Shown here in pieces: positions 11,489-64,000 of a stretch of DNA of 64,000 nt (positions within the stretch are counted from its first letter, which is position 1; each line of letters begins with the position of its first letter). The translations under genes were made by a program, and so were the position numbers. Source of the stretch: Clostridia bacterium. GTDB taxonomy: Bacteria; Bacillota; Clostridia; Oscillospirales; CAG-272. The notes under the pieces were generated by a model that was not told where the DNA came from, ran no database searches, and saw only the letters and a list, made by a program, of their open reading frames with translations. The stretch covers positions 29,133 to 93,132 of the forward strand of contig JAFVRO010000014.1 in NCBI GenBank assembly GCA_017504205.1, written 5' to 3'.

Positions 11489-12292
11489 TCAGGCTTTATT
11501 GAAAACGGTTTTTCTGATTAAGTTATCTATATATACGGTACCCGGCTGCGCAGATGTCGAGGTCAATCTTAGGGCGCACAGATATTCAATGTTACCGTCT
11601 CCGCCGGTTATGGGGGACGTACATATACCGTCAAGAGTAAAGCCGTTTTGGAGTGCGCAGGATACGACCTTGACTACCGCCAAGTATCTATCGGTATCCT
11701 TTTTTACGATTCCGTTTTTATTGAGTGCGTTTCTGCCTGCTTCAAACTGCGGTTTGATCAAGGAGACGAGCACGGCATCCTTTTTGAGAAGATTGACGAT
11801 GCCCGGAATAATGAGAGTTTGCGATATGAAGGAAACGTCCATAACCGCCAAATCAAACGGATCTTGATGCAGATCTTGAAGCGTAATATACCTTGCGTTG
11901 AGTCCTTCAAATGAAGTTACGCGAACATTCTCTGCAATACGCGGATGAAGCTGTCCTCTACCTGAATCTACGGCACATACATGTTCGGCTCCACATTGAA
12001 GCAAGCAATCGGTAAAGCCGCCTGTTGATGCACCTATATCAATACAGGACTTACCCGTTGCGTCAATTTTAAATGTGTTTAGTGCGTGCTCGAGCTTATA
12101 GCCACCCCGTCCAACGTACCTTTCAGCATTATTTACCGTTACATTATGGGTGACGGTCTCGTCAACGGATTCGGAGGGTTTAGAGACTGTGCGGCCGTCT
12201 ACGGTAACAAACCCCTTTTCGATATATACCTTTGCCTTCTGTCGGCTTTCGGCGTAACCGTTTTCATACAGATACAAGTCAATACGCATCAT
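11489..12292 (-). CDS. tlyA: TlyA-family rRNA 2'-O-methyltransferase
   Basis: S4 domain (RIDLYL), DIGASTGGFTD, DVSFIS, LIKPQFEAG, GGDGNIEY. Confidence 0.95.
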   Translation of the reverse strand: MMRIDLYLYENGYAESRQKAKVYIEKGFVTVDGRTVSKPSESVDETVTHNVTVNNAERYVGRGGYKLEHALNTFKIDATGKSCIDIGASTGGFTDCLLQCGAEHVCAVDSGRGQLHPRIAENVRVTSFEGLNARYITLQDLHQDPFDLAVMDVSFISQTLIIPGIVNLLKKDAVLVSLIKPQFEAGRNALNKNGIVKKDTDRYLAVVKVVSCALQNGFTLDGICTSPITGGDGNIEYLCALRLTSTSAQPGTVYIDNLIRKTVFNKA

Positions 12293-13188
12293 CAGAACTC
12301 CCTGTTAAGAAGATAGGAGGCAAATGCAGACAGTACTCCGTTTGTATCGTAGGGTGATATTACCGAGATCGCCTCGTTGGTCAGGCAACGTGCAACGTCA
12401 AGGGCTTCACTGACTGAATAGAAGCTCATATAGGTTGTTTTGTCGTTTTCTCTGTCCGAGCCTATATTTTTGCCAAGGACCTCTGCAGTTGATGTAGTAT
12501 CGAGAATGTCGTCCACTATTTGAAAGACCATTCCGATTTTCCGCGCGTAGGTATCGAGTGCGGCATATTGGGGAGTTCCTGCACCATAATCTGCGCAGAT
12601 CGCGCCAATAAGACACGATGCCCGTATAAGCTGACCTGTTTTCAAAGAATGCATTTTTTGCAGGGTCTCGAGGGGAATGCGGTTACCTTCGCTTTCGAGA
12701 TCTACAAGTTGACCTCCTATCATACCGCGAGCACCTGCACATCCCGCAAGAAGTGATATAAGTGCGACTTTTTTACTGTCAGACAAGCCGTAAGCATCTG
12801 CCACGGTGCTGAAGGCTTCTGTAAGCAGAGCATCTCCCGCAAGCACCGCTACGGCTTCACCGTATACTCTATGGTTTGTAGGCTTGCCTCGTCTCAGATC
12901 GTCGTCGTCCATACAAGGAAGATCATCGTGAATGAGTGAATAGGTATGGATCATTTCGATGGCGCATGCGGCGGGAAGAACAATATCAACTGCGCCGCCA
13001 AATATTTTTGCGCTTTCTATAGCCAGAAACGGGCGAACGCGCTTACCGCCTGCGGTAAAGCTGTAATTCATTGAATCATACACTGTACGAAGTGAGGCGT
13101 CGTCTGTAAACAGAAATTTTTCGGCGTATTCTTCAAGCAGAGCTTTATTTGCCGATATGAGTGAGAGTAGTTCTTTTTCGTTTATCAT
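12292..13188 (-). CDS. ispA: Farnesyl/geranyl diphosphate synthase
   Basis: GGKRVRP, HDDLPCMDDDDLRRGKP, FQIVDDILD. Confidence 0.93.
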   Translation of the reverse strand: MINEKELLSLISANKALLEEYAEKFLFTDDASLRTVYDSMNYSFTAGGKRVRPFLAIESAKIFGGAVDIVLPAACAIEMIHTYSLIHDDLPCMDDDDLRRGKPTNHRVYGEAVAVLAGDALLTEAFSTVADAYGLSDSKKVALISLLAGCAGARGMIGGQLVDLESEGNRIPLETLQKMHSLKTGQLIRASCLIGAICADYGAGTPQYAALDTYARKIGMVFQIVDDILDTTSTAEVLGKNIGSDRENDKTTYMSFYSVSEALDVARCLTNEAISVISPYDTNGVLSAFASYLLNREF

Positions 13189-13204
13189 TTCAACATCCGT
13201 AAAT

Positions 13205-13414
13205 TTATTGTGGAAGTTCGGACGCGTTTATAACCGTGACCTTTTGCTGAGCCGAGTCAAGCATACCGTTGCAGAATTTTATGAGCTCGATTCCCTCTTT
13301 GTATAGTTCAAGAGACATATCGAGTGGGGTATCGGGCTGTTCAAGGAGGCGCGTTACCTCTTCAAGCCTTTGCATTGCCGCCTCAAAGGTCATTGATTCG
13401 TTCTGATGGTTCAT
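13205..13414 (-). CDS. xseB: Exodeoxyribonuclease VII small subunit
   Basis: TFEAAMQRLEEV...SLELYKEG; start taken at the ATG after AAGGAG. Confidence 0.92.
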   Translation of the reverse strand: MNHQNESMTFEAAMQRLEEVTRLLEQPDTPLDMSLELYKEGIELIKFCNGMLDSAQQKVTVINASELPQ

Positions 13415-13430
13415 TTTTTTCTCCTTAGGT

Positions 13431-14669
13431 TCATTCATTATCGGGTTGATACTCGCTTACCACTATTGCACCGATGTTTCCGTCCTTAAAGGTCACGTTT
13501 ATCAACGCCCCCTTTTGTAATGCGGTAGCGGACATTATACGGTCACCGCTTTTTTTATCGGTAACTGTAGCAAAGCCTCTTGACATAACGGAAAGTGGGT
13601 TGAGTGCGTTCAGCTTATCCACAGAGGCTTTCAACGAGATACGCTTTCTGTCAAGGGTTGAAGCAATGGCATTTCCGAGCCGTGCGCTGAAATTATCAAT
13701 AGTTATTCTTCTTGCGTTCATCGAGTGAACGAGCAGATTCATTCCGCGTCCCTCACTGAGTAGCTTAATTTTACTTCTCAACAAATCAAAATGACGTTGA
13801 AGAGTCGAGCGCATACCTATCTTCAGGGAATCAAGCTGTGCCTGAATTTCGCGGAAATCGGGCACTGCAAGCTCTGCGGCGGCAGACGGTGTTGGGGCTC
13901 GCACGTCGGAGACGAAATCGCTGATGGTGAAATCCGTTTCGTGTCCTACAGCGGAAATTATGGGGATGGTACAGGAATAGATCGTTTTGGCGAGATATTC
14001 ACTATTGAATTCCCAGAGATCTTCAATAGAGCCACCGCCTCTGCCAATGATTATAACATCCACGCTTTGGGTATCGTTAAAATAGCTGATACCGTCTGAT
14101 ATCTGTTTTGCTGCTCCGTTGCCTTGCACTTGCGAAGGATATATAACGATTTCGGCAAGCGGAAAGCGTCTGCCCAGCACGTTTATCATATCACGCACCG
14201 CCGCTCCCGACGGAGAGGTAACGATGCCGATGCGGCCCGGGTATTTCGGAAGTGCTTTTTTGTGTGCCTGATCGAAGTAGCCTGAGGCGTAAAGACGCTG
14301 CTTGAGCTGCTCGTAAGCAAGATGAAGTGCGCCCACGCCGTCCGGGATTATATCATCAACATATAACTGATACTGTCCGCTTTTACCGTAGAGGGAAACT
14401 CTACCTCTTGCCACGACCTTCATTCCGTCCTTCAGACTGAAGGTCAGTCTTTGAGCATAGGAGCGGAACATTACGGAGCTTACCACTCCGTCTGAATCCT
14501 TGAGGGAAAAATAGAGGTGTCCCGAGGAGTAGTATTTAAAATTTGAGATCTCGCCTCTAACGTATACGGATCTTAAAAGCTCGTCTGTGTCAAGTAGGCG
14601 GGTCACATAATCGTTGAGCTGGGATACAGTCAGTGTCAGCTGACCGTGTGCGTCGTTCATTCGGTTCAC
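13431..14669 (-). CDS. xseA: Exodeoxyribonuclease VII large subunit
   Basis: GEISNF, SGHLYFSLKD, RGGGSIEDL, GHETD, TPSAAAE. Confidence 0.96.
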   Translation of the reverse strand: MNRMNDAHGQLTLTVSQLNDYVTRLLDTDELLRSVYVRGEISNFKYYSSGHLYFSLKDSDGVVSSVMFRSYAQRLTFSLKDGMKVVARGRVSLYGKSGQYQLYVDDIIPDGVGALHLAYEQLKQRLYASGYFDQAHKKALPKYPGRIGIVTSPSGAAVRDMINVLGRRFPLAEIVIYPSQVQGNGAAKQISDGISYFNDTQSVDVIIIGRGGGSIEDLWEFNSEYLAKTIYSCTIPIISAVGHETDFTISDFVSDVRAPTPSAAAELAVPDFREIQAQLDSLKIGMRSTLQRHFDLLRSKIKLLSEGRGMNLLVHSMNARRITIDNFSARLGNAIASTLDRKRISLKASVDKLNALNPLSVMSRGFATVTDKKSGDRIMSATALQKGALINVTFKDGNIGAIVVSEYQPDNE

Positions 14670-14684
14670 CTTTTTCTGTAATAG

Positions 14685-15644
14685 TTAGTTCAGGTATGCA
14701 AGTCTGCAGAGCAAGGAAATTCCTGCTGCGTTATCTGCGGAAAATTCGGGGGATGCAAACAAGGCGTTGAAGTGCTCGGAGAGCTTGCCTTGGATATATT
14801 TATTACTCATAACGCCGCCTGCGAACAAAAGCTTTGTATCGGGGTAGCGTTCGAGAAGATTTTCCGTAAGCTTAGTAAACGTAAGCACGAGGTAATCAAG
14901 AACGAAGCGGCTTGTGACCTCACGGCTTTGGGTGGTCGTGTACAGTTTTCCCGCAAGGCTTTCAAGGCCGGACAGGTTACAGTTAAGTCCTTTTACGGAC
15001 ACGCGCGGCTTCGGTACTTTTTCTTTACAGTTATCCGACAGACATTCCATTTCCCGTCCGCAGGGGAATGTAAGCCCCATTGCAACTCCTGTGCGATCTA
15101 TTGCCTGACCCGCGTTCAGGTCGCTTGTGCCGCCGATCAGCTCTATATTGAACGGATGAGCTACCGTGGTGCCGGGGGTAACGCGGAGTATTTCCGTGGT
15201 GCCACCTGAAACGTGGAAGGCACAAAACGGAGATGATATAAGAGTATCTGCCGTTCCTGAGGAATAAGCCGCAGCCATAACGTGTCCCTCTTGGTGAGAA
15301 AACTGAAATACGGGTACATTGGCGCCAAGACCTATACTGAGCGCGGTATCACGCCCAACGAGGAAGCAAGGCATATACGAGCCTTCAACATTTCTCGGCG
15401 TTGACGAGCAACCGACGGCGACAATTTTATAGTCCCGCAGTATATTTTTGGCGGAGGATAATAAATCGGGGAGATTCTTTATATGTGCAAATACGGCGTC
15501 ACTCTGGCGCAATCCTCTTTCGCCATCATTCACCTCAAGGAGTTTTTTCAGATTAAGTATTACGCTTCCGTCCGCATCGCACGCCGCAACGGATGTGGTA
15601 TAGTTACTTGTATCAATACCGATAAAGCAAATGGGATCAGCCAT
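14685..15644 (-). CDS. TsaD/Kae1-like (peptidase M22) paralog
   Basis: GIDTSNYTTS, SHQEGH, HVSGGT, AGQAIDR, GGVMSN, DNAAG. Confidence 0.85.
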   Translation of the reverse strand: MADPICFIGIDTSNYTTSVAACDADGSVILNLKKLLEVNDGERGLRQSDAVFAHIKNLPDLLSSAKNILRDYKIVAVGCSSTPRNVEGSYMPCFLVGRDTALSIGLGANVPVFQFSHQEGHVMAAAYSSGTADTLISSPFCAFHVSGGTTEILRVTPGTTVAHPFNIELIGGTSDLNAGQAIDRTGVAMGLTFPCGREMECLSDNCKEKVPKPRVSVKGLNCNLSGLESLAGKLYTTTQSREVTSRFVLDYLVLTFTKLTENLLERYPDTKLLFAGGVMSNKYIQGKLSEHFNALFASPEFSADNAAGISLLCRLAYLN

Positions 15645-16131
15645 TCTTTTCTACCTTTGCGCGAGGCTTTGCACTTTTTCTTTTCGGCGCGGTATTTTTA
15701 ACCGAAAGAAAAGTTTCATCACATTCCTCTATCAGTTGATTTTTTATACCGTTAAGTACGCCGTTGACAAATCCCTTGGTTTTATCGTCATCGTATTTTT
15801 TAACTAGCTCGATAGCCTCGTTGATTGAGACAGTGAAAGGAATGTCGGGGGTATATTTCATTTCATATATTGCAACACGCATAGCGCACAGCGCGGGCTT
15901 GGAAATTCTGCCGATTTTCCAACCGTTTGCGTATTTTTCGATCAGCGCATCCAACTCCGATTCGTACTCTATGACACCGAAGAAAACTCCGTTGACATAC
16001 TCGTCATTGGGAATATCGCGGACATTCTTTGCGGTCTCAAAAATTGCGGTGGGGTCATCGTCACGTCTGAATTCTCTTTCGAAGAGTATTTCATACACCA
16101 GTGTGCGTGCTTCTTTTCTGTTAAGCTCCAT
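15637..16131 (-). CDS. nusB: Transcription antitermination factor NusB
   Basis: RKEAR, SINEAIELVKKY, FVNGVL. Confidence 0.93.
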   Translation of the reverse strand: MELNRKEARTLVYEILFEREFRRDDDPTAIFETAKNVRDIPNDEYVNGVFFGVIEYESELDALIEKYANGWKIGRISKPALCAMRVAIYEMKYTPDIPFTVSINEAIELVKKYDDDKTKGFVNGVLNGIKNQLIEECDETFLSVKNTAPKRKSAKPRAKVEKNG

Positions 16132-16218
16132 ATTGCTTCCCTTTCATGTTGAGTTATGGTCGGCGCAGGTCGGTCGGTTTTCCGACGTGCGTTCTATATA
16201 CATAATAATTCACAGTAT

Positions 16219-16247
16219 ATTATACATAGAATTCCGTAAAAAGTCAA
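16219..16247 (-). promoter_or_regulatory. sigmaA promoter of the nusB operon
   Basis: TTGACT, 17 bp, TATAAT. Confidence 0.7.
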
Positions 16248-16388
16248 CTGATATTTGCATTTTTATATGTTTTTTATAATATTTATTCATTAAATATCGA
16301 AAAAAACATCGCTACAGCGAATTAACGAAGATATATACGGTAAAAATAAGCTGATAACAAAAAACTCGTGCAAATATTTTGTAGGGTG

Positions 16389-16417
16389 TTGCAAACGGAA
16401 GGAAAATAATGTATAAT
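16389..16417 (+). promoter_or_regulatory. sigmaA promoter
   Basis: TTGCAA, 17 bp, TATAAT, upstream of the 16448 gene. Confidence 0.65.
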
Positions 16418-16447
16418 ATATAAAGACTATTTGCGTGAGGTAATTTT

Positions 16448-16876
16448 ATGGATGCAAAAACTATTTTTAAGAAAACGCTTATTCTGACATGTATTATATA
16501 CACCGTATTTTCAGCAGTGCTTCTCTGCGGTCAGTTATTGGCGGAAGGAAATGCCGATGACGTAATTATTGAGCCACTACGTTTTTTCTTGCTCCTTCCA
16601 TATGCACTTTGTACGGCGTTTGGGTTTACGTTTATGAAGTGCAAGGAAATACACGGCCTTATAAGAGGCTCGATTCATTACTTATGCGTAGCGGTCAGCA
16701 TATTTGCTTTTCTCTACCTACCCATGGCGTCGTCCGCATCTGACGGGGACAAGCTTGCGGCATTCTTTATTATTTCGATAGTGTACGCATTCGCATATGT
16801 GCTTTTGATATGCATACGTTCTGTGCGAAAAAAGCGTGCGACTGTCAAAAAGCAGTACAAAGAGTTATATAAATAA
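16448..16876 (+). CDS. Hypothetical 4-TM membrane protein
   Basis: Four hydrophobic segments, basic C-terminal tail, GAGG RBS. Confidence 0.75.
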   Translation: MDAKTIFKKTLILTCIIYTVFSAVLLCGQLLAEGNADDVIIEPLRFFLLLPYALCTAFGFTFMKCKEIHGLIRGSIHYLCVAVSIFAFLYLPMASSASDGDKLAAFFIISIVYAFAYVLLICIRSVRKKRATVKKQYKELYK

Positions 16877-56270: not shown

Positions 56271-57098
56271 TTACAAGATAAAAAATATTATTATCACCAA
56301 TGCAAGCACAATACGATATATGCCAAACACGGTAAGCTTACGTGTTCTTACGAAATCCATAAGGAAGTGTATGGTTATCAATGAAACTGCGAATGCAGTT
56401 ATTGCGCTCACTGTCAAGGCTATAATCTGCTCCGCAGTCAAAGCTATTCCGCATTTTTGAATAAAGCGCGTCGCCTTAAGCAGAGACGCGCCTATCATTG
56501 TTGGAATAGCAAGAAAAAATGAAAACTCTGCGGATGTACTACGATCAAGTCCAAGCAACAAGCCACCAAGGATTGTTGAGCCTGAGCGTGAGGTACCCGG
56601 AATGCAGGAAAGGGCTTGAAAAAAACCGATTGCGGCAGCATGGGGTACAGTAATCTCTGAACTTTGCTTGAGTTGCCTTCTCTTCTCCACGAAGATAAAC
56701 GCACTGCCGTAGATAATCAGGGTTATTGCGACAGTGGAAACGTTCATAAGGTGTGCCGAAATAAATTCATCAAGTTTCAGTGCGATTATCACGAGTGGTA
56801 TTTCTGCAACAGCGACCTTGAGCCAAAGAAAGAGGGTGTTCTTTTTTTCTTCCAATGACTTCTTCCTTGAGAATGGATTCAGTTTATAAAAGAAAGTTAC
56901 TGCAACGGCGAGAATTGATCCGAGTTGTATAAAAACAAAAAACAGTTCCTTGAATGCCTCAGTTTCTCCCGGCAGTGGAAAACCCAACAACGCATCCATG
57001 AGCAGCATATGGCCCGTTGAGCTGATTGGTAGCCATTCGGTTATCCCTTGGACGATGCCATAGAGGATAGATATCAGTATTATTTTTAAAATTTGCAT
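56271..57098 (-). CDS. uppP: Undecaprenyl-diphosphate phosphatase
   Basis: GIVQGITEWLPISSTGH, IQLG, PGTSRSGSTI, EFSFFLAIP. Confidence 0.95.
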   Translation of the reverse strand: MQILKIILISILYGIVQGITEWLPISSTGHMLLMDALLGFPLPGETEAFKELFFVFIQLGSILAVAVTFFYKLNPFSRKKSLEEKKNTLFLWLKVAVAEIPLVIIALKLDEFISAHLMNVSTVAITLIIYGSAFIFVEKRRQLKQSSEITVPHAAAIGFFQALSCIPGTSRSGSTILGGLLLGLDRSTSAEFSFFLAIPTMIGASLLKATRFIQKCGIALTAEQIIALTVSAITAFAVSLITIHFLMDFVRTRKLTVFGIYRIVLALVIIIFFIL

Positions 57099-57252
57099 AT
57101 TATGTAAAGCAGGCAGCAGGACTTTAGCGTATTGCTAATAGTGAACACTAATATACTTCAGTGTTTTTTACCGTCCGGTCTTTATCAATGGACTATTTAT
57201 AATATAATACTGAATTGCAGAAAAAATTCGTATCGGCAGATATTTTTTGTTT

Positions 57253-58335
57253 TTAACCTACGATGTACTCAAGTCTTTCAAGCAGAGATATGAAATCCGC
57301 ATCCTCGATGAGGAAGGCATAGCGCTTATGTCCGAGCTTATAGAGCAACTCTTCAGCAAGATAATACACGTCGGTTGTTTCGGTTTTATCGATAGTATCG
57401 AATACTCCGTACTCACGCCTGATCAATGACGGTGATACGGTTGGTGTATCGAGCAATTTTTCAAGTATTGTAACGCTTGCGTCGAGTTCCTTGATAGTAT
57501 TCGCGGTATCACCAAGCTCGGCATATATTACAGAAGCATAGCGATGAACGTCGCACATAAGCTCCGTACCTCTATCTGCCTCATTTTCAAGCAGTGCACC
57601 GTATATTCCGACTATTTTATTGAGTAATACTATTTTTTCCTCGGCGGAATATGCATCGCAAAATGCCAATGCGCGAAGTCTCTGGCAGAGTGCATCAGTA
57701 TAGGTTATTATATTATCCTTTATAAGGTCAATCTTTTCGTTATCTCGGCACAGAGCGATCCTGATCTTATCAGCAGTGATACATGACGAGGGGAAGCGAT
57801 TCACCACTGCAAGAGCTTTATCGGTCTCGCCGCGGGATGAGTATATCGCGCTGAGTATCTCGATGGTTGAGTATCTGTAATTATCCACGGTGCAATTATC
57901 AAGTATCTCCTCGCAGAGCTTCACTGCTTCGTCGAGGAAAGTGGGTTCAAGCTCGGCATGATATGCGGCGTAGGTGGTATAGAGTTTTTGGACAAGCTCG
58001 GACTTCATCAACCAATTATTTGGATATTTTGCCACGCCGTTTCTAAGAAGTGAGAGACTTTTTTCGTTTTTATCCTGTGCGCTCTCAAGGTCGGCTGACT
58101 TCTGTATTATAATCTCTATTGCGGCATTCACATCAGTGTTATCGAGTCCGAAAAGGAGATCTGTGGTTACCTCGAAAAGATTTGCTATGATGGGAATCAG
58201 ATGCAGGTCGGGCATTGCAAGCCCATTTTCCCAACGCGAAACTGCCTGCGGAGAGATATTGAGGTAATCTGCAAGCTTTTCCTGGGTCATGTTTTGCTCT
58301 CTTCTGAGACGCTTAATTGTTTTTCCAATATTCAT
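57253..58335 (-). CDS. XRE HTH regulator with TPR-like C-terminus
   Basis: IGKTIKRLR...MTQEKLA..L.ISPQAVSRWENG..MPD; helical remainder. Confidence 0.88.
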   Translation of the reverse strand: MNIGKTIKRLRREQNMTQEKLADYLNISPQAVSRWENGLAMPDLHLIPIIANLFEVTTDLLFGLDNTDVNAAIEIIIQKSADLESAQDKNEKSLSLLRNGVAKYPNNWLMKSELVQKLYTTYAAYHAELEPTFLDEAVKLCEEILDNCTVDNYRYSTIEILSAIYSSRGETDKALAVVNRFPSSCITADKIRIALCRDNEKIDLIKDNIITYTDALCQRLRALAFCDAYSAEEKIVLLNKIVGIYGALLENEADRGTELMCDVHRYASVIYAELGDTANTIKELDASVTILEKLLDTPTVSPSLIRREYGVFDTIDKTETTDVYYLAEELLYKLGHKRYAFLIEDADFISLLERLEYIVG

Positions 58336-58376
58336 TTTTGACCTCCGTTAAAACTGTAATTAGCGGTTGGTATCGG

Positions 58377-61300
58377 TTATGTGTCTTTGTTGGTATCGTT
58401 TTTGGGCGCGCGAGGAAGCTTTTCCATACGGGCACTTGGAAGTGTAGTTCTTTCCCTCTTTTCCTTGCCCGTTTTTTTGAAAAACGGTGCGCGTTTGGGT
58501 GACTCTTGGGAAGGAGCAGAAGTAGGTGTCGATGTCATTCGCTCCGGCCTAACACTTGTGGGCGATTCGGGGACTTCGTCATTTAGCTTTTGTGGCTCCG
58601 TCGAAGTCGTTGAGGTCACTTGATTCTGTGGTACATCGCCGGAAGTTTCGGCATCATTTTTAATCGGTTCTGATGCTGTAGAAGCTTCCTGAGATTCGGT
58701 GATCTCTGAAGATTTTGCAACATTACGGGGGGTATCAATAGGTTTTACTTCGGGAGCTTCCGCTTTTGGCACATCCTTTTGAGAATCAGGCTCTTGGGGT
58801 GTTTTTTTGGCGAATATTGAAAATATGCTCCTCTTTTTTCCAAGTATATCGGGCGCTACTGCTTCCATTAGTGTATAAAGTTGTGGAAATCCTTCAGTGA
58901 TCTGCATAGCGCATTTTTTAACCAGTTTACGGCTCTTAGGTGCGTTTTCCTTTACAAAGGACTCAAAGAAGCGAAGAGTCAGTGATGATTCACCGCTTTT
59001 GTAGAGCAAATTCACGAGGGAGGCGTTGACGTCGAGCGTTTTACACATTTTGCAGAAATCGACAGCTGCCTTGAAGGTAAGCTCGGCAAGCATTACGTTG
59101 TCTACCTTGATCTCATTAGCCGGAACCGTCTTATTCTTCTTTCTGAGTTCTGCCTGCTTATTTGCGACGTAGAGTGTACGCAGCTTTGCCATACACTTTC
59201 CATAGACTTCACCAAAGGATTGATTATTGGATGAGTCCAGAATGAATGGGATAGCTAATGCGGTGTAATACTCAAGCGCGATCTCAGGGGTTATGGGCTT
59301 TAAAAATTTAGCGTCCTCGGAATAAAGCTTACCGAAATAATACTCAAGTAATTCAGCGGCATCAAGTGTCATACAAGGTGATTTTGCCAAGCTTATCAGC
59401 TGCTTTACTGCGCCCTGAACGTTATGGTTTCTCATTTGTTTATACAAATTATCCGCCATAACGATCGTGGGGAATTCTTGAGCTGACGCATAGTCTGCGT
59501 TCGAGGTTATATATTCGGTAACGTACGGCAGGCAATCCTCACGAATCTGATATTTGAATGTCTCGGCGAGTTTTGAGGTTATGATAGGCTTAATTGCGGT
59601 CTGATAAAGTTCTGAATACAACTTACTTGCAAGAGGCGAGTTGATTTGTGTTAATGCAGAGCGCATCTCTTGGTCAAGAGCGATAAAATCAAACAGATTA
59701 CGCTTTTTGCGGTTAGCCTCTACAAGTTTAAAGAGACCGTTTTCAAGTGCAGATATGACCTCATCGGGCATTTCCGCGTAATTGCCGCACAAAACAGCGA
59801 TGGAATCAACCACTCCGTCAAGGCTTTTACCGAGTAACATATTACCGAGGAAGTATTCAAACACCTTGACGTTTTTAAGGTCAATAATTATTACTGCAAG
59901 CAGTTGTGCAGACATTGGGCGCAGGTTATACGGATCGCTGAAGATGAGATCTATAAGTTTTCTGTCTCCTGAGGCAAATGTTTTTTCGATACGGAGGAAG
60001 ATGCTTCTGACTATGGATCTCTGCACCTTTGGTTCTTCGTCGGTTATATGTTCTTCGAAGAAATTTATAATTTTCTGTGAGAGCTTATCTGCCTCGGGAA
60101 GCTCCTCAAGCATAGCCCCTCTGACTATTGAGCGAAGGCCTGCGGGAAGCCCTGCGTAGTGGTTATTGAGGAAGGTGATGATCTGATCCTGTATCTGCTC
60201 ACTTCTTATGGAGGCCATAAGCTTTTTGATGATATTTTCTTTTACATCGTCATCTTCGTTCTCGAAGTCTTCGTCGAAAAAGTTAAGTAGCTGAGATTGG
60301 AGAAACTGACCGTAGAAAACGCGGGTAAGGTTTTCCATAATCACGAGCTTTGCTTCTTTGGTTTCGGTTATATAATTTTTGCGTATGAACTGAAATAGCT
60401 TTTCGCGCATAATGTCGGTATGGATAAGTGTAAGAACGGGCTCCATCATTACCGCGCGGCATTCTTTTGTATCCGAGGGATAAAGCTTTTGAAGTTTTCC
60501 AAATACGTTGGGTGGGATAGCTCTCTTTTCGGATGAATATCTTGAGAGCGCAGCAAGCACGCAACATCTTTCGTCGGTTGCAAGGTATTGCTTAAATCTC
60601 TCATATGCGCATAGCAGGTTATAAATTGCGTCATCATTTGGAAGCACACCTGCGTCGTTATCTTCGGCATTTGTAATTTTATTGAAAAGCAGAATGATAC
60701 TGCTCATATTTTCAAACTTATAATCTTGAGTTTTTGGCATCATGCGGCAAGCAAATTCGATAAAATTCGTGCGTTTTTGAGCATTCTCAAGCAAACTGTA
60801 AAGAAATTCAACGTCATGTTTATACTTTTTATATGTTGAATCCTCTTCCTTCACACCTATAACGGTATTATTCTTAAAATTGAATATGAAAGCGTTACTT
60901 TTATTGATCAGGGGGAGTTGTTGGTCAATACCGTATACGAATTTCACATTAAAGAAGGTCATATTCGATTTACGCACAGATGCTGAAAATGAAATTATTG
61001 AAACCCTTCTTCTGATATGATGAGGAAATACGGAGAGTATTTTATTAAGGAGTTCGATGGACTTTTGGGAGTATGATTCGATACTTGCATCAATATCTAT
61101 ATATATTGATTTTGAGCCCTTACCTGAAGTTGTTACAAGGAGGGCGTAAATCAGACCATGGAGCAGACGTGAGTCATATTCTTCAGTCAATGTGCTTACG
61201 TCGCCGACGGACTCCGGAATATAATTAAGTTGGGGATAATCGACGGATGGTGCATCGCTATTAACTGAAATGTGGGTGACGTCATCAAAGCCACAGGCGA

Positions 61301-61685
61301 AATTGGATGGAGAAAAAAGTGAAAAATCGGATGAGGTGATAAGGGATTCTGTCTCCTCTTCGGAGAGGACGAGTGAATGCGCAAAATGGCCGTGCGCCTC
61401 GCCAGTAAAATCCTCGGACAAAAAGCTCACGCAGGACTGTATAAGCTCGCCTGTCTTTTTTGAAAAGTAAGACATATACACCGGTGGCATTCTATCATCC
61501 AGAATCAACTGCTTTTCTGCGTCGGTATATTTATAATTTTTGTTATATTCGCAAAGCTTAAGGATATTTTCTTTAATGTACAGTTCATTGATGCCGCTAC
61601 TTACCGCGAAGGTGTCATAGCTCAATTCCTTTTTATACAAGCTCAGCTTTGCGGGGACCTTTGCATACAGATGTTGTTTTGCCAT
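58377..61685 (-). CDS. Large protein with GAP1-N2/GAP1-M-like N-terminus, helical-repeat body and disordered C-tail
   Basis: QHLY...YDT.A.S.GI...IKE....LC.Y...GE......DFTG....FAHS, then ..IYI.ID.....LL..I...FP..IRR..S.ISF. Start moved to ATG 61685 (AAAGGA RBS). Confidence 0.65.
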   Translation of the reverse strand: MAKQHLYAKVPAKLSLYKKELSYDTFAVSSGINELYIKENILKLCEYNKNYKYTDAEKQLILDDRMPPVYMSYFSKKTGELIQSCVSFLSEDFTGEAHGHFAHSLVLSEEETESLITSSDFSLFSPSNFACGFDDVTHISVNSDAPSVDYPQLNYIPESVGDVSTLTEEYDSRLLHGLIYALLVTTSGKGSKSIYIDIDASIESYSQKSIELLNKILSVFPHHIRRRVSIISFSASVRKSNMTFFNVKFVYGIDQQLPLINKSNAFIFNFKNNTVIGVKEEDSTYKKYKHDVEFLYSLLENAQKRTNFIEFACRMMPKTQDYKFENMSSIILLFNKITNAEDNDAGVLPNDDAIYNLLCAYERFKQYLATDERCCVLAALSRYSSEKRAIPPNVFGKLQKLYPSDTKECRAVMMEPVLTLIHTDIMREKLFQFIRKNYITETKEAKLVIMENLTRVFYGQFLQSQLLNFFDEDFENEDDDVKENIIKKLMASIRSEQIQDQIITFLNNHYAGLPAGLRSIVRGAMLEELPEADKLSQKIINFFEEHITDEEPKVQRSIVRSIFLRIEKTFASGDRKLIDLIFSDPYNLRPMSAQLLAVIIIDLKNVKVFEYFLGNMLLGKSLDGVVDSIAVLCGNYAEMPDEVISALENGLFKLVEANRKKRNLFDFIALDQEMRSALTQINSPLASKLYSELYQTAIKPIITSKLAETFKYQIREDCLPYVTEYITSNADYASAQEFPTIVMADNLYKQMRNHNVQGAVKQLISLAKSPCMTLDAAELLEYYFGKLYSEDAKFLKPITPEIALEYYTALAIPFILDSSNNQSFGEVYGKCMAKLRTLYVANKQAELRKKNKTVPANEIKVDNVMLAELTFKAAVDFCKMCKTLDVNASLVNLLYKSGESSLTLRFFESFVKENAPKSRKLVKKCAMQITEGFPQLYTLMEAVAPDILGKKRSIFSIFAKKTPQEPDSQKDVPKAEAPEVKPIDTPRNVAKSSEITESQEASTASEPIKNDAETSGDVPQNQVTSTTSTEPQKLNDEVPESPTSVRPERMTSTPTSAPSQESPKRAPFFKKTGKEKRERTTLPSARMEKLPRAPKNDTNKDT

Positions 61686-61777
61686 TTTTGTTTTCCTTTT
61701 CAATATTATCAAATCATCCGAATGATTCAGACGGATTGTCAACCATTCGGATGATTCTTTTAGGGTATAGGATCTGA

Positions 61778-63007
61778 TTATTTAATAATCGCTCCGATGA
61801 TCATATCAAGAATGGGATAGAAGGTAATGAGTGAGAGCAGGAATACGATAATTTTTCCTGCAATCTTACCACCGAACTTATTGGATCTGGAGATGCTCTT
61901 TTTATCGAAGCTTTCAATAGCATCTGCCAATGCATCGATATCACCGAGGGAGTCGCTGCCTGCATCCATATTGGTGATATTATTCATGAAGTAAGAAAGA
62001 TGCTCAAAATCAGTTTCATAGAAGGTTTCAACATCTTCAAAGCCTTCAATGCTGAAGCATGCTTCAGGGAGAGACTGTGTAGGCTCAAGCTGAGAGGCAC
62101 TGCTATTAGCATAGAGAAGCACCTTAGTCATATTATCGCAGAAGCTTTCAACGATCTTATCGCCGTTTGCTTCAATGATATCAAGGTTATTTTCCAGTGT
62201 CTGGCAGTTTGCAAGTATCTTTTTGATACCTGAAATGAGCTTGATCTCTTTTACGATCTTACCTATGCTTATAAATGAGACCAGAAGTCCGACAATTATA
62301 CCGATAGCGTTAGGAACGTATCTGAGGAGGAGGGGGAGATCACCCAAAGAGGATATGAGCGACGCGAGTCTGTTATCGGTAAAGAAGGTTACTAAACCGA
62401 TAATGGAAAGTATGAAGGTAATTCCCCAGAGTATGATATAGGTAACGAGTTTGGGCATGCACCTGCTAACGCTATCTGTATCAACATTGAGTTCGTCCTT
62501 CTTTTCCTGAACGCGCTCACGGATAGCATTGACGTTGGACTGCTGCATTTTGAAGTTATGGCAGATCTTAGCCTTCTGCTGTGCGAGATACTCCTCGAAC
62601 AGTTCAGCTATTCTCTTTTCCTCATCGTATTCGTCCTCAAAGAAATCTACGATAAATCCGATTGGAACGTATTTATCCTTAGTATTCGGGAACTTGAGGA
62701 AAACATATCTCATATTTGCGGTACTGACCCTAATGCTTACATTTTTACCGCCCATGAGCATCTTTTCAAGCCAATCTATGTTCATGCACTGATAGATGCG
62801 CTCATACTGATCGCTATCTATATGGTTGGATGAGAAGATGGTTTCGATATCCTTTTTGCAACGCTCTGCCTCGGGCGTGCTGATATTCATCATAATGTTC
62901 TTAAAATCGACTATATGATCCTTAACCCATTCCATGGCTTGTTCCATGATATAGTTGGTGGATCTACGGTCTGTTTTCCATTGACATTCAAACATAATGT
63001 TATTCAC
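61778..63007 (-). CDS. Hypothetical membrane protein (3 TM, coiled-coil segments)
   Basis: 409-aa ORF with AAAGG RBS, two central TMs and one C-terminal TM. Confidence 0.75.
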   Translation of the reverse strand: MNNIMFECQWKTDRRSTNYIMEQAMEWVKDHIVDFKNIMMNISTPEAERCKKDIETIFSSNHIDSDQYERIYQCMNIDWLEKMLMGGKNVSIRVSTANMRYVFLKFPNTKDKYVPIGFIVDFFEDEYDEEKRIAELFEEYLAQQKAKICHNFKMQQSNVNAIRERVQEKKDELNVDTDSVSRCMPKLVTYIILWGITFILSIIGLVTFFTDNRLASLISSLGDLPLLLRYVPNAIGIIVGLLVSFISIGKIVKEIKLISGIKKILANCQTLENNLDIIEANGDKIVESFCDNMTKVLLYANSSASQLEPTQSLPEACFSIEGFEDVETFYETDFEHLSYFMNNITNMDAGSDSLGDIDALADAIESFDKKSISRSNKFGGKIAGKIIVFLLSLITFYPILDMIIGAIIK

Positions 63008-63061
63008 CTTTCTGTTAACCTTTTAACGCGTATCAAAGACACTTTAAATCAAGGTTATAGT

Positions 63062-64000
63062 TTATTTTTTAGAGTTCTTGAGTTTAGCAAACCTTTGGCA
63101 CGCATAGCTTTCGTCCTTACACTGACGGCGCTTAAGCTCCAGTGCGCTGATCGCTTTCGAATGGATGCAGCTTGTATCACCGAGTACCAGGTCGATCACG
63201 TTCAAAACAACGAATACATCGGAGCAATCAGCGGTATTACCTTCAAGGATTGAGATAATATTATCGGCTATTGCCTCGAGTGTTGGCTTTATACCCACGG
63301 CGAGCGGGATATAGAGGCTTCCATTATTATAAAGATCATTCTGCGCTTTAAAGAGCTCAACAAGAATATTATAAGTCTTGGCAGGCTTTTGGTCAATTTC
63401 GATGTATGAAACGGACGATTTAATGATTCTGAGAAGAGCATTCCGGTATGCAGAATTTACGTTTACGTTATTTGCGGCAAGAGGTGCGGTATGCATTGCT
63501 CTATAATACTCGTTATAAATTTCAAGGGCGTCGATCACATTTTCGCAGTTATAACTGAGCTTTTTGAGGGTATCAAGAGTTACAATTTCACTGTCGCCGC
63601 CGGAATGGCTACCGATCCACTCATCGAGTGCTTCAAGAGATACAGGATAACCGTTCAAGCACTCAACACCGTCCTCTGCCCAAAGGGTCATGAGTCTCTG
63701 AAGGAGCTGAACGATGGTCTGTTGTCTTGTGGCGAGCTTCTGAACAACCTCGTAATTGAATACGGTTTCATTTGCGATCACGAGATCGCTTGGAATATTT
63801 ACGTCGCGGAAGCCTGCGAAAAGGTTAGTCCACAGATATTCGGAAACGCTATCAAGCTGTGAGTAATAATCCGCTTTCATTTGCTCGAACTGAGCTTGAA
63901 TGGTTGCGTTAAGCTCGGCAGCCTCTTGATTTCTTTGGGCTTCGTTCTCTTGATTCTCGCGCTCCATGCGAGCCTGGCTCTCGGTGGTGATCCTTGTTCT
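63062..64000 (-). CDS. Hypothetical alpha-helical/coiled-coil protein, 5'-truncated by the window edge
   Basis: The frame stays open from 63967 to the window end (RTRITTESQAR-M...). Confidence 0.75.
   Translation of the reverse strand, partial: RTRITTESQARMERENQENEAQRNQEAAELNATIQAQFEQMKADYYSQLDSVSEYLWTNLFAGFRDVNIPSDLVIANETVFNYEVVQKLATRQQTIVQLLQRLMTLWAEDGVECLNGYPVSLEALDEWIGSHSGGDSEIVTLDTLKKLSYNCENVIDALEIYNEYYRAMHTAPLAANNVNVNSAYRNALLRIIKSSVSYIEIDQKPAKTYNILVELFKAQNDLYNNGSLYIPLAVGIKPTLEAIADNIISILEGNTADCSDVFVVLNVIDLVLGDTSCIHSKAISALELKRRQCKDESYACQRFAKLKNSKK

Follow-up and report, generated by a model that had tools for sequence, protein, structure and literature searches.

What kind of system ends in a large GAP1-family gene on a clostridial contig, and does that gene belong to the system that it adjoins? 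The DNA analysed here, the window, is a stretch of 64,000 nucleotides (contig C21, JAFVRO010000014.1, positions 29133-93132) from G000, a metagenome-assembled genome (MAG) of 947 kb that is 52% complete. A preliminary description of the window had seen in positions 57253-64000 three co-oriented genes and, 41 bp on, a regulator of the XRE type with tetratricopeptide repeats (TPR), and had read them as the distal end of a probable GAP1-associated conflict-system operon. The open reading frame (ORF) list bears out this arrangement, with four co-oriented minus-strand genes occupying 57253-64000. Same-strand ORFs were then read in the 20 kb upstream of the window (locus L002), which showed that 57253-64000 makes up the last third, at the 3' end, of a cluster of nine co-oriented genes that spans about 20 kb, from window position 57253 to window-equivalent position 77386. 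The cluster is real and represents a strongly diverged form of the tubulin theme known from GAP1-N2/DO-GTPase systems. In the reading that we consider probable, genes 1-7 form a diverged tubulin-theme operon with an 866-amino acid (aa) GAP1 of its own, and a 1102-aa protein is a second GAP1-family protein, of a pilus-linked type, that has joined the operon end together with the regulator. What is new is that GAP1-N2 proteins have a pilus-linked subfamily and that a member of it was apparently recruited to the cluster. Genomes, contigs, loci and database proteins carry our own labels (G, C, L and P numbers, respectively). The features of the cluster, in window coordinates unless L002 is named, are as follows.

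57253..58335, minus strand: 360-aa regulator with an XRE-family helix-turn-helix (HTH) and a helical (TPR-like) part; last co-oriented gene of the cluster
58377..61685, minus strand: 1102-aa GAP1-family protein of the pilus-linked subfamily (the large gene); ORF readable up to a TTG at 61742
58377-61742, minus strand: 1121-aa form of the large gene, from the ORF list
61713..61751, minus strand: spacer from the 409-aa gene to the large gene, with a promoter-like site and an inverted repeat
61778..63007, minus strand: 409-aa membrane protein with three transmembrane (TM) segments; conserved operon partner
63062..64000, minus strand: 3' part of the 866-aa gene, directly after the GTPase gene; more than 312 aa lie in the window
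L002 195-2795 (window-equivalent 63062-65662), minus strand: the entire 866-aa gene, as a full ORF
L002 2858-4603, minus strand: 581-aa zinc-ribbon GTPase, from ORF and motifs
L002 4640-5458, minus strand: 272-aa orphan, from the ORF
L002 5458-7332, minus strand: 624-aa orphan, from the ORF
L002 7422-11249, minus strand: 1275-aa Tubulin_2 (FtsZl1) protein, from ORF and Pfam
L002 11313-14519, minus strand: 1068-aa surface protein, vWA-like with immunoglobulin (Ig)-like repeats, from ORF and Pfam

From 5' to 3', the order is vWA-like/Ig surface protein, Tubulin_2, 624-aa protein, 272-aa protein, GTPase, 866-aa protein, 409-aa protein, 1102-aa protein and XRE-TPR regulator, with spacers of 63, 89, a 1-nt overlap, 36, 62, 54, 35-92 and 41 bp, the last measured from the large-gene stop to the start of the regulator gene. 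The one base shared by the 624-aa and 272-aa genes suggests translational coupling. Past the 1068-aa gene, the L002 ORFs continue with an unrelated transporter gene. Contigs from two runs not flagged as the source, one of them from another study and with 10 differences, extend across from the 409-aa gene into the large gene, and this junction is therefore not an assembly artefact; that of the large gene with the regulator is spanned only by contigs of possible source runs. Boundaries of an island could not be read from congeners, in which UppP is only 46-48% identical and the 484-aa transporter has no match.

The tubulin-theme operon

The core NTPase had been expected beyond position 64000, and it is there that a Tubulin_2 protein and a zinc-ribbon GTPase are encoded. 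The 1275-aa protein matches Tubulin_2 (PF13809) over residues 36-387 with 156.6 bits (E = 1.3e-45) and continues in a long helical C-terminal region; the glycines of its T1 (GxGGxG; G39, G41, G42 and G44) and T4 (GGGTGSG; G181, G182, G184 and G186) motifs are invariant across 8 sequences. In the 581-aa protein, CPxCG and CRxCG zinc ribbons, GSHNSGKT, hhhhDxPGE and NKxD are all conserved in the alignment, and by these motifs it is a DO-GTPase2-like P-loop GTPase with two zinc ribbons. Its orthologue in G051 (26% identical, E = 5e-45) scores 28.1 bits on PF19993 (DO-GTPase2), above the cut-off of 27, and the orthologue in L049 scores 25.1 bits. The 1068-aa surface protein has a signal peptide, three Big_9 stretches (33.4 bits, against a cut-off of 23.6), a TM segment at 921-939 and a cytoplasmic tail. 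Towards the N-terminus it can be aligned with relatives' vWA domains, but has DIGSN in place of the DxSxS of the metal ion-dependent adhesion site (MIDAS). The 624-aa and 272-aa proteins belong to no detectable family; the 624-aa protein and its analogues gave E values of 0.2-0.3 against the tubulin profile by hhalign, which is not significant, and BLAST of the 624-aa protein against the tubulin was likewise not significant.

To find relatives of the operon, the GTPase alignment was used to scan GTDB genomes, which yielded 5 loci, from MAGs that bear the label Eubacteriales or Ruminococcus; scanning metagenomes yielded another 12, of which 8 were analysed and the 4 shortest left out. Genes 1-7 are syntenic in the 5 GTDB loci, and 7 of the 8 analysed metagenome loci carry parts of the same order, while the eighth (L077) has a GTPase gene by itself, in other surroundings. 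The order that recurs is a vWA/PKD-Big_9 surface protein, Tubulin_2, a CvpA-like protein in some, a protein of ~550 aa, one of ~220 aa, the DO-GTPase, a protein of 530-843 aa and a TM protein. Genes 1-7 are a very diverged member of this conserved gut-Clostridia operon, itself a variant of the tubulin theme. The CvpA/Colicin V production-type protein (PF02674, E = 6e-11) stands between the tubulin and ~550-aa genes in GTDB loci only (L035 11330-12067, L048, L049 and L051), and is not in the window cluster, L073 or L075.

As set out in passages of Kaur, Burroughs, Iyer and Aravind (2020, eLife; PMC7159879), GTPase-centric conflict systems are built on the DO-GTPase, a TRAFAC GTPase with a Walker B glutamate and often two zinc ribbons. 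Those passages place GAP1, with its N, M and C domains, "downstream of a DO-GTPase gene" or fused to the GTPase, list variable partners, give N2-type systems a protein with rapidly evolving fibronectin type III (FNIII) repeats, and find tubulin genes in about half of N2 neighbourhoods. The Firmicute tubulin theme is described there as having two tubulins, two vWA proteins (one fused to YtkA), an FNIII-repeat protein and a GAP1 with a polar C-terminal extension, and the actinobacterial form as having one tubulin and a membrane-bound vWA/repeat protein. The early proposal of a divergent variant of a known GAP1 system agrees with this type. The cluster shares with these systems its occurrence in Firmicutes and the following parts: the GTPase is of TRAFAC type, has a Walker B glutamate and carries two zinc ribbons at its N-terminus, the Tubulin_2 protein ends in a helical region, the vWA protein is bound to the membrane and bears beta-sandwich repeats, and the variable partners have TM segments. 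Having a single tubulin and a single vWA-like protein, the latter with a degenerate MIDAS, it comes nearer to the actinobacterial than to the Firmicute layout, and of the Firmicute-version features it shows the polar extension only. The Big_9 Ig-like beta-sandwich may substitute for FNIII repeats; no fn3 family was found by Pfam in the nine proteins at E <= 0.1-1. Unlike in the published systems, the gene in the GAP1 slot is unrecognised by Pfam, and a Pfam-recognisable GAP1-N2, of the pilus-linked subfamily, follows two genes further on.

Operons of FtsZl1, vWA and GTPase genes are also described in passages of Makarova and Koonin (2010, Biol Direct; PMC2875224), who proposed a role in membrane remodelling. 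Compared with those, the cluster has no OmpA-family protein, as expected for a Gram-positive, and its MIDAS is degenerate, whereas that in most of theirs is intact.

The 866-aa and 409-aa partner proteins

The two genes upstream of the large gene had at first matched no recognised component. Both turn out to be conserved partners, the first of them in the GAP1 slot and weakly GAP1-like. As had been foreseen, the gene with more than 312 aa in the window continues past its end, to 866 aa in full, and it lies directly downstream of the GTPase gene, which is the slot of GAP1. Its product has no Pfam family. The family numbers three proteins among 5.8 billion; a full HMMER search of 1.84 billion representatives gave two 50%-identity clusters and one marginal match, and a search of genome contigs with the family alignment gave no relative. 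Similarity to the positional analogues could be followed by BLAST (E = 5.3e-6 and 7.8e-5 for two analogues) and by profile-profile comparison with the four GTDB analogues (E = 0.0011).

For comparison with GAP1 itself, hhalign was used with profiles of different depth. A 13-sequence 866-aa profile aligned with the subfamily of the large protein over 154 columns (E = 4.4e-4, probability 33%), in collinear fashion across the N and M regions, and with canonical GAP1 over 236 columns, collinear from the N-terminus (E = 0.012, probability 3.6%). These collinear matches came from the 13-sequence profile only, smaller profiles being weaker or non-significant: against canonical GAP1, the 866-aa profile gave E = 0.54 (not significant) and a 4-sequence profile of positional analogues gave E = 0.097 (not collinear, not significant). 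Pairwise BLAST of the 866-aa against the 1121-aa protein was also not significant. The ESM Atlas clusters nearest to the 866-aa protein carry GAP1-N2, GAP1-M or GAP1-N1 at scores of 0.85-0.89, which serves as a lead only. An AlphaFold2 model from a 3-sequence alignment had a predicted local distance difference test score (pLDDT) of 47.9, with the N-terminal 380 residues below 50, and was unusable for fold search. In relatives, the counterparts of the protein have at their C-terminal end a TM segment and a tail that is acidic and rich in serine, an ending that matches the tubulin-theme GAP1 as characterized in passages of Kaur et al. (PMC7159879). Judged by sequence and gene position, the 866-aa protein is quite probably an extremely diverged GAP1 of the GTPase.

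For the 409-aa protein, three TM segments had been claimed, and hydropathy places them at 191-209, 226-244 and 378-396. The N-domain is helical and cytoplasmic, and is followed by a TM hairpin and, at the C-terminus, by the third TM segment. No Pfam, NCBIfam or PADLOC family was found for it, nor SLATT or another pore family at E <= 1, and the ESM Atlas held nothing above 0.80. Its family, too, numbers three proteins among 5.8 billion. Relatives have at this position a gene whose product shows homology to the N-domain (E = 7.6e-11 to 3.6e-4). The 866-aa and 409-aa genes are conserved but very fast-evolving parts of the operon, and the 409-aa protein would be the conserved membrane partner of the 866-aa GAP1 and the GTPase. 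One relative of the 409-aa protein (L049 14146-16005) ends in an F5/8 type C (discoidin) domain (PF00754, E = 9e-9). This domain presumably faces outward, and suggests that the TM partner is a variable surface sensor.

The 1102-aa protein and its pilus-linked subfamily

The large gene likely starts at the ATG at 61685 (MAKQHLY...), which is preceded by an AAGGA ribosome-binding site and gives 1102 aa; an identical database protein (P0008) is also 1102 aa long. The motifs quoted for it in the preliminary description (QHLY, YDTFAVSSGI, DFTGE, FAHS, IYIDID and FPHHIRRRVS) are all present in the translation. The domains proposed on their basis, GAP1-N2 and GAP1-M, fared differently by Pfam. GAP1-N2 (PF20013) was matched over residues 20-134 of the 1121-aa ORF with 34.8 bits (E = 2e-8, cut-off 24), and with 39.3 bits in the genome search; GAP1-M (PF20014) reached 12.2 bits, under its cut-off of 24. 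By hhalign, the alignment to canonical GAP1 nevertheless spans both, over residues 19-333 (E = 2.7e-10, probability 96.8%, 287 columns), and no similarity to canonical GAP1 was found past residue ~333. Of the large protein, 59 homologues were collected, mostly of 880-960 aa, and many subfamily members hold PF20014 in precomputed annotation. Three parts of the protein could be told apart.

60846..61685, minus strand: N-terminal alpha/beta head, GAP1-N2 (about aa 1-120) and GAP1-M (about aa 147-280); predicted fold longin/DENN-like or TagF-like
58857..60839, minus strand: all-helical alpha-solenoid body, aa 283-943, from AlphaFold2 and Foldseek
58380..58838, minus strand: disordered tail rich in P/S/T/E/K with a basic end, aa 950-1102, from composition and pLDDT

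The AlphaFold2 model (58 sequences, mean pLDDT 81.6) has alpha/beta domains at 1-120 and 147-280, about 35 helices over 283-943 and disorder from 950. The helical body noted earlier is an alpha-solenoid, with helices mostly above a pLDDT of 85; the top Foldseek matches are HEAT/ARM solenoids (CAND1, karyopherins, AP2 and Pds5B), at E values of about 1e-3 and TM-scores of about 0.14. For the head, a longin/DENN- or TagF-like fold is predicted, which likens it to the longin-DENN modules of eukaryotic GTPase regulators (DENND1A, DENND10 and folliculin/FNIP) and to TagF, its best structural match, from the type VI secretion system. TagF is described in passages of PMC5995506 as a post-translational regulator of that envelope machine. 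No paper linking TagF with DENN was found in the literature searched, and a sequence search gave no relative of solved structure for the large protein or the GTPase (best E = 0.11 and 0.18, respectively). The tail of roughly 150 residues, P/S/T/E-rich with a basic end, was also described correctly from the start: its composition is rich in P, S, T, E and K, its basic end has a net charge of +7, and its pLDDT is below 50 over 950-1102. At the C-terminus, the subfamily has a conserved basic-hydrophobic motif with the consensus ..FFxKLFGKK, here KKRSIFSIFAKK, which may bind membrane. In the large protein the tail runs beyond KKRSIFSIFAKK, and a long tail is restricted to the G000 and G042 types.

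A whole-genome search with the large protein was carried out over 200 other genomes of the same bacterial family. Homologues were found in 10 of them, one (G162) marginal, leaving 9 strong cases. In 8 of the 9, the homologue lies 15-45 bp downstream of pilB in a fixed order: a 418-aa gene, the prepilin peptidase gene (pilD), pilC, pilB and the PF20013 homologue of ~900 aa. The pilus genes match the Pfam families A24, T2SSF and T2SSE with MshEN. By its sequence, the large protein falls in this subfamily, normally placed after pilB. Between genomes, PilB is 70-84% identical and the adjoining PF20013 protein merely 30-42%. The ninth case, in the congener G042, is solitary, beside ruvC-like and other genes; its 45% identity to the large protein fits orthology, because UppP is itself so divergent among congeners. 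The five-gene pilus unit occupies 1577-9340 of L021 (G023:C5), and recurs in L016/L017, L018, L019, L020, L022, L023 and L024; its 418-aa first gene has no Pfam family.

In the same 200 genomes, PF20013 was found in 16 and PF19993 in 6; both occur in 4, each time on one contig. The remaining 12 of the 16 PF20013-positive genomes had no PF19993 match at E <= 1e-4, at a completeness of 85-97%, and a missing match in an incomplete genome is not proof of absence. The full-length query retrieved only pilus-type proteins, and not the canonical GAP1s of G020, G106, G163 and G023:C4, despite which profile comparison found the N2 and M regions of the large protein to be homologous to canonical GAP1. 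Those canonical proteins, of the HSP70 theme (G106:C17, G020:C61, G163:C196 and G023:C4), have a similar length of 860-1010 aa; unlike the large gene, theirs lie between or beside DO-GTPase2 genes, near HSP70. In the main text of Kaur et al., "pilus" and "PilB" occur 0 times, and the neighbourhood source file of that paper may list such cases.

The regulator that follows the large gene had been called XRE-TPR, a type (RNPP-like) that joins an XRE HTH at the N-terminus to a peptide-binding TPR domain at the C-terminus. Its HTH is firm (HTH_3, E = 4.7e-16, 59 bits), and the TPR half of the name is sub-threshold in Pfam, TPR_14 staying at 19.6 bits where 23.5 are required and no single stretch reaching that cut-off. 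Its PADLOC and NCBIfam matches are confined to the HTH, residues 1-100. A GGAGG ribosome-binding site precedes its ATG by 6 nt, and no gene of this type was found at the visible operon ends of relatives. On the other side of the large gene, a consensus scan placed a promoter-like site, TTGACA-18-GATGAT, at 61742-61713 in the spacer; the scan gave 19 sites against 15.6 expected, and a single site is no evidence of function. Inspection of the spacer sequence also turned up an inverted repeat of 8 bp, TCCGAATG at 61751-61744 and CATTCGGA at 61724-61717, with 19 nt between its arms, that overlaps the promoter-like TTGACA. It could be an operator for the XRE-TPR regulator.

These observations bear on whether the large gene is an integrated part of the cluster, to which we incline, if by a modest degree. 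It could instead be that the 1102-aa and XRE-TPR genes are a separate unit merely adjoining the operon, a displaced pilus-associated regulator or scaffold, with a DENN/TagF-like head and a solenoid, that still serves a type IV pilus or another envelope machine, the place of a GAP1 match beside a GTPase operon then being coincidental. We regard such a separate unit as rather unlikely. It would account for the place of homologues directly after pilB, in fixed order, in 8 of 9 genomes, for the retrieval of pilus-type proteins only, for the 12 PF20013-positive genomes without a PF19993 match, for the lack of the large gene at the operon end in 4 relatives and for the solitary orthologue of G042; the spacer with its promoter-like site and inverted repeat, and a best structural match to TagF, the regulator of another envelope machine, would also suit it. 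Coincidence, on the other hand, would ask for the genome's single PF20013 gene to have come by chance, and in the same orientation, next to a DO-GTPase2 operon, which is unlikely. The junction is bridged in independent assemblies, and linkage also seems to last. Two homologues of the large protein, P0009 (69% identical) and P0010 (59%), sit on contigs of exactly the same size (346398 and 24866) as homologues of the 866-aa and 409-aa proteins, P0009 matching P0002, and P0010 matching P0003 and P0006; this suggests that the linkage persists at 59-69% identity. In a FastTree of the subfamily, the window protein groups with P0009 and P0010, sister to the solitary G042 type and apart from the pilus-verified members, which is weak evidence of grouping, the tree being midpoint-rooted with support values not printed. 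The scan for terminators, moreover, gave no terminator-like site on the minus strand over 56900-64000, and pilB was not found in G000 (52% complete); in the three congeners, pilB is not followed by a homologue of the large gene. A GAP1-like paralogue, finally, fills the same slot in L073, where two 866-family paralogues of 530 and 641 aa flank the TM gene (11648-16474), a layout that mirrors the 866-aa gene, TM gene and large gene of the window.

Several further points tell against the picture of a diverged tubulin-theme operon joined by a second GAP1. Of the features of the Firmicute version, two tubulins, two vWA proteins, YtkA and FNIII were not found in the cluster. The GTPase of G000 scores only 17.2 bits on PF19993, against the cut-off of 27, and neither the 624-aa nor the 272-aa protein is significantly similar to its positional analogues (E = 0.12). 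Statistically, the case for the 866-aa protein as a GAP1 is weak, with hhalign probabilities of 3.6-33%, Atlas scores below 0.9 and an unusable model. A search of the nine proteins in PADLOC-DB v2 at E <= 0.1 gave, below E = 0.001, only HTH matches of the regulator (RmrA, capH and control proteins), other matches lying at E = 0.013-0.03, and the literature searched contained no experiment on a system of this type. With its promoter-like site, the spacer could permit a transcript of its own for the large gene and regulator, and the nearest congener, G042, carries the orthologue of the large gene alone. Moreover, in none of the 4 relatives whose operon end is visible do the large gene and regulator stand there: the TM gene is followed by convergent unrelated genes in L049 and L050, by a zinc-ribbon TM protein gene in L035 and by the 866-family paralogue in L073. 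The synteny looked for in other genomes was thus seen for the 866-aa and 409-aa genes, in 5 GTDB and 7 metagenome loci, and not for the large gene. With these absences and the pilB context of the subfamily, the original idea of the large PF20013 protein as the conserved GAP1 of this operon type did not hold up as stated.

Our more far-reaching suggestion is offered tentatively, and we would not call it probable: PF20013 proteins might extend beyond DO-GTPase systems, the pilus-linked subfamily, large, fast-evolving and fixed as the last gene of pilM-like/pilD/pilC/pilB operons in gut Clostridia, being a regulator or scaffold of type IV pili, whose tailed form, with the XRE-TPR protein, was recruited to a tubulin/DO-GTPase operon that has a GAP1 of its own. 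If true, heads of the GAP1 type would be a counterpart in bacteria of DENN-type regulators, serving as adaptors of general use that connect nucleotide-driven envelope machines to what controls them.

Proposed mechanism, function and related loci

On the reading of a tubulin-theme operon with two GAP1-type proteins, the outward-facing vWA/Ig protein and the TM protein would sense an event at the envelope and pass the signal to the DO-GTPase, acting as a switch. The longin/DENN-like heads of the GAP1-type proteins may set the nucleotide state of the GTPase or hold it in place. The switch, in turn, would control how the tubulin-like protein assembles beneath the membrane; a membrane-tethered scaffold may be provided by the large protein's solenoid, and the XRE-TPR protein would control transcription.

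The term "conflict system" is a published interpretation, and the outcome may be either defence against invading elements (Kaur et al. 2020) or membrane remodelling (Makarova and Koonin 2010). A role in conflict would be in keeping with the patchy distribution and the very high speed of divergence. Tubulin_2 relatives were found in 9 of the 200 family genomes, and the 866-aa protein in none of three congeners. The alternative is that the whole cluster is a non-immune, cytoskeleton-like apparatus for remodelling of the membrane or envelope or for transmembrane signalling, in which the tubulin is organised under the membrane by the GTPase and the vWA/Ig protein is an adhesin or wall anchor. Exactly this was proposed, in passages of Makarova and Koonin (PMC2875224), for FtsZl1 and vWA with "a distinct GTPase". 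We hold it to be the less plausible account of the cluster, since the patchiness just described, the very fast divergence of the non-enzymatic parts (three proteins each for the 866-aa and 409-aa families) and the gap in identity between the pilus-linked GAP1-type protein and PilB form a pattern that passages of Kaur et al. (PMC7159879) treat as the mark of conflict systems. The apparatus would agree, all the same, with the finding of no toxic effector domain in the nine proteins by Pfam or NCBIfam, with a PADLOC search that matched nothing beyond the regulator HTH, with the lack of an integrase or other mobile-element gene among the flanking ORFs of the window and L002, and with the tie of the related subfamily to pili, themselves envelope machines.

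A system of vWA, tubulin-like, zinc-ribbon GTPase and GAP1 proteins has been catalogued twice by comparative genomics, and a further copy alone adds little. In gut Clostridia the GTPase partner has diverged past the reach of Pfam, and Pfam censuses would therefore miss such systems or misplace their GAP1. That GAP1-N2 has a second, commoner context directly after pilB bears on the role of the domain, and a pilus phenotype is easier to score than a defence of unknown kind. The family name GAP1 has so far reflected gene neighbourhood only; the predicted longin-DENN/TagF-like fold of the head gives a biochemical hypothesis, namely GTPase-activating, guanine nucleotide-exchange or sequestering activity.

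Two further kinds of loci were noted in the bacterial family. A separate Tubulin_2 operon occurs in L037 (G196:C29), L039 (G002:C2), L040 (G004:C12) and L041 (G003:C89), in the order vWA surface protein (713-890 aa), Tubulin_2 (1141-1211 aa), a protein of ~670-760 aa and a giant membrane protein of 1373-1735 aa, with no GTPase gene among the ORFs listed for it. HSP70-theme GAP1-N2/DO-GTPase2 loci were found in L062 (G106:C17), L063 (G020:C61), L064 (G163:C196) and L065 (G023:C4), and contain a Hsp70-like gene, a zinc-ribbon GTPase, a GAP1 of 860-1010 aa and a second GTPase that is seemingly membrane-bound. One of these genomes, G023, holds both the HSP70-theme DO-GTPase2 system and a pilus-linked PF20013 gene, on different contigs.

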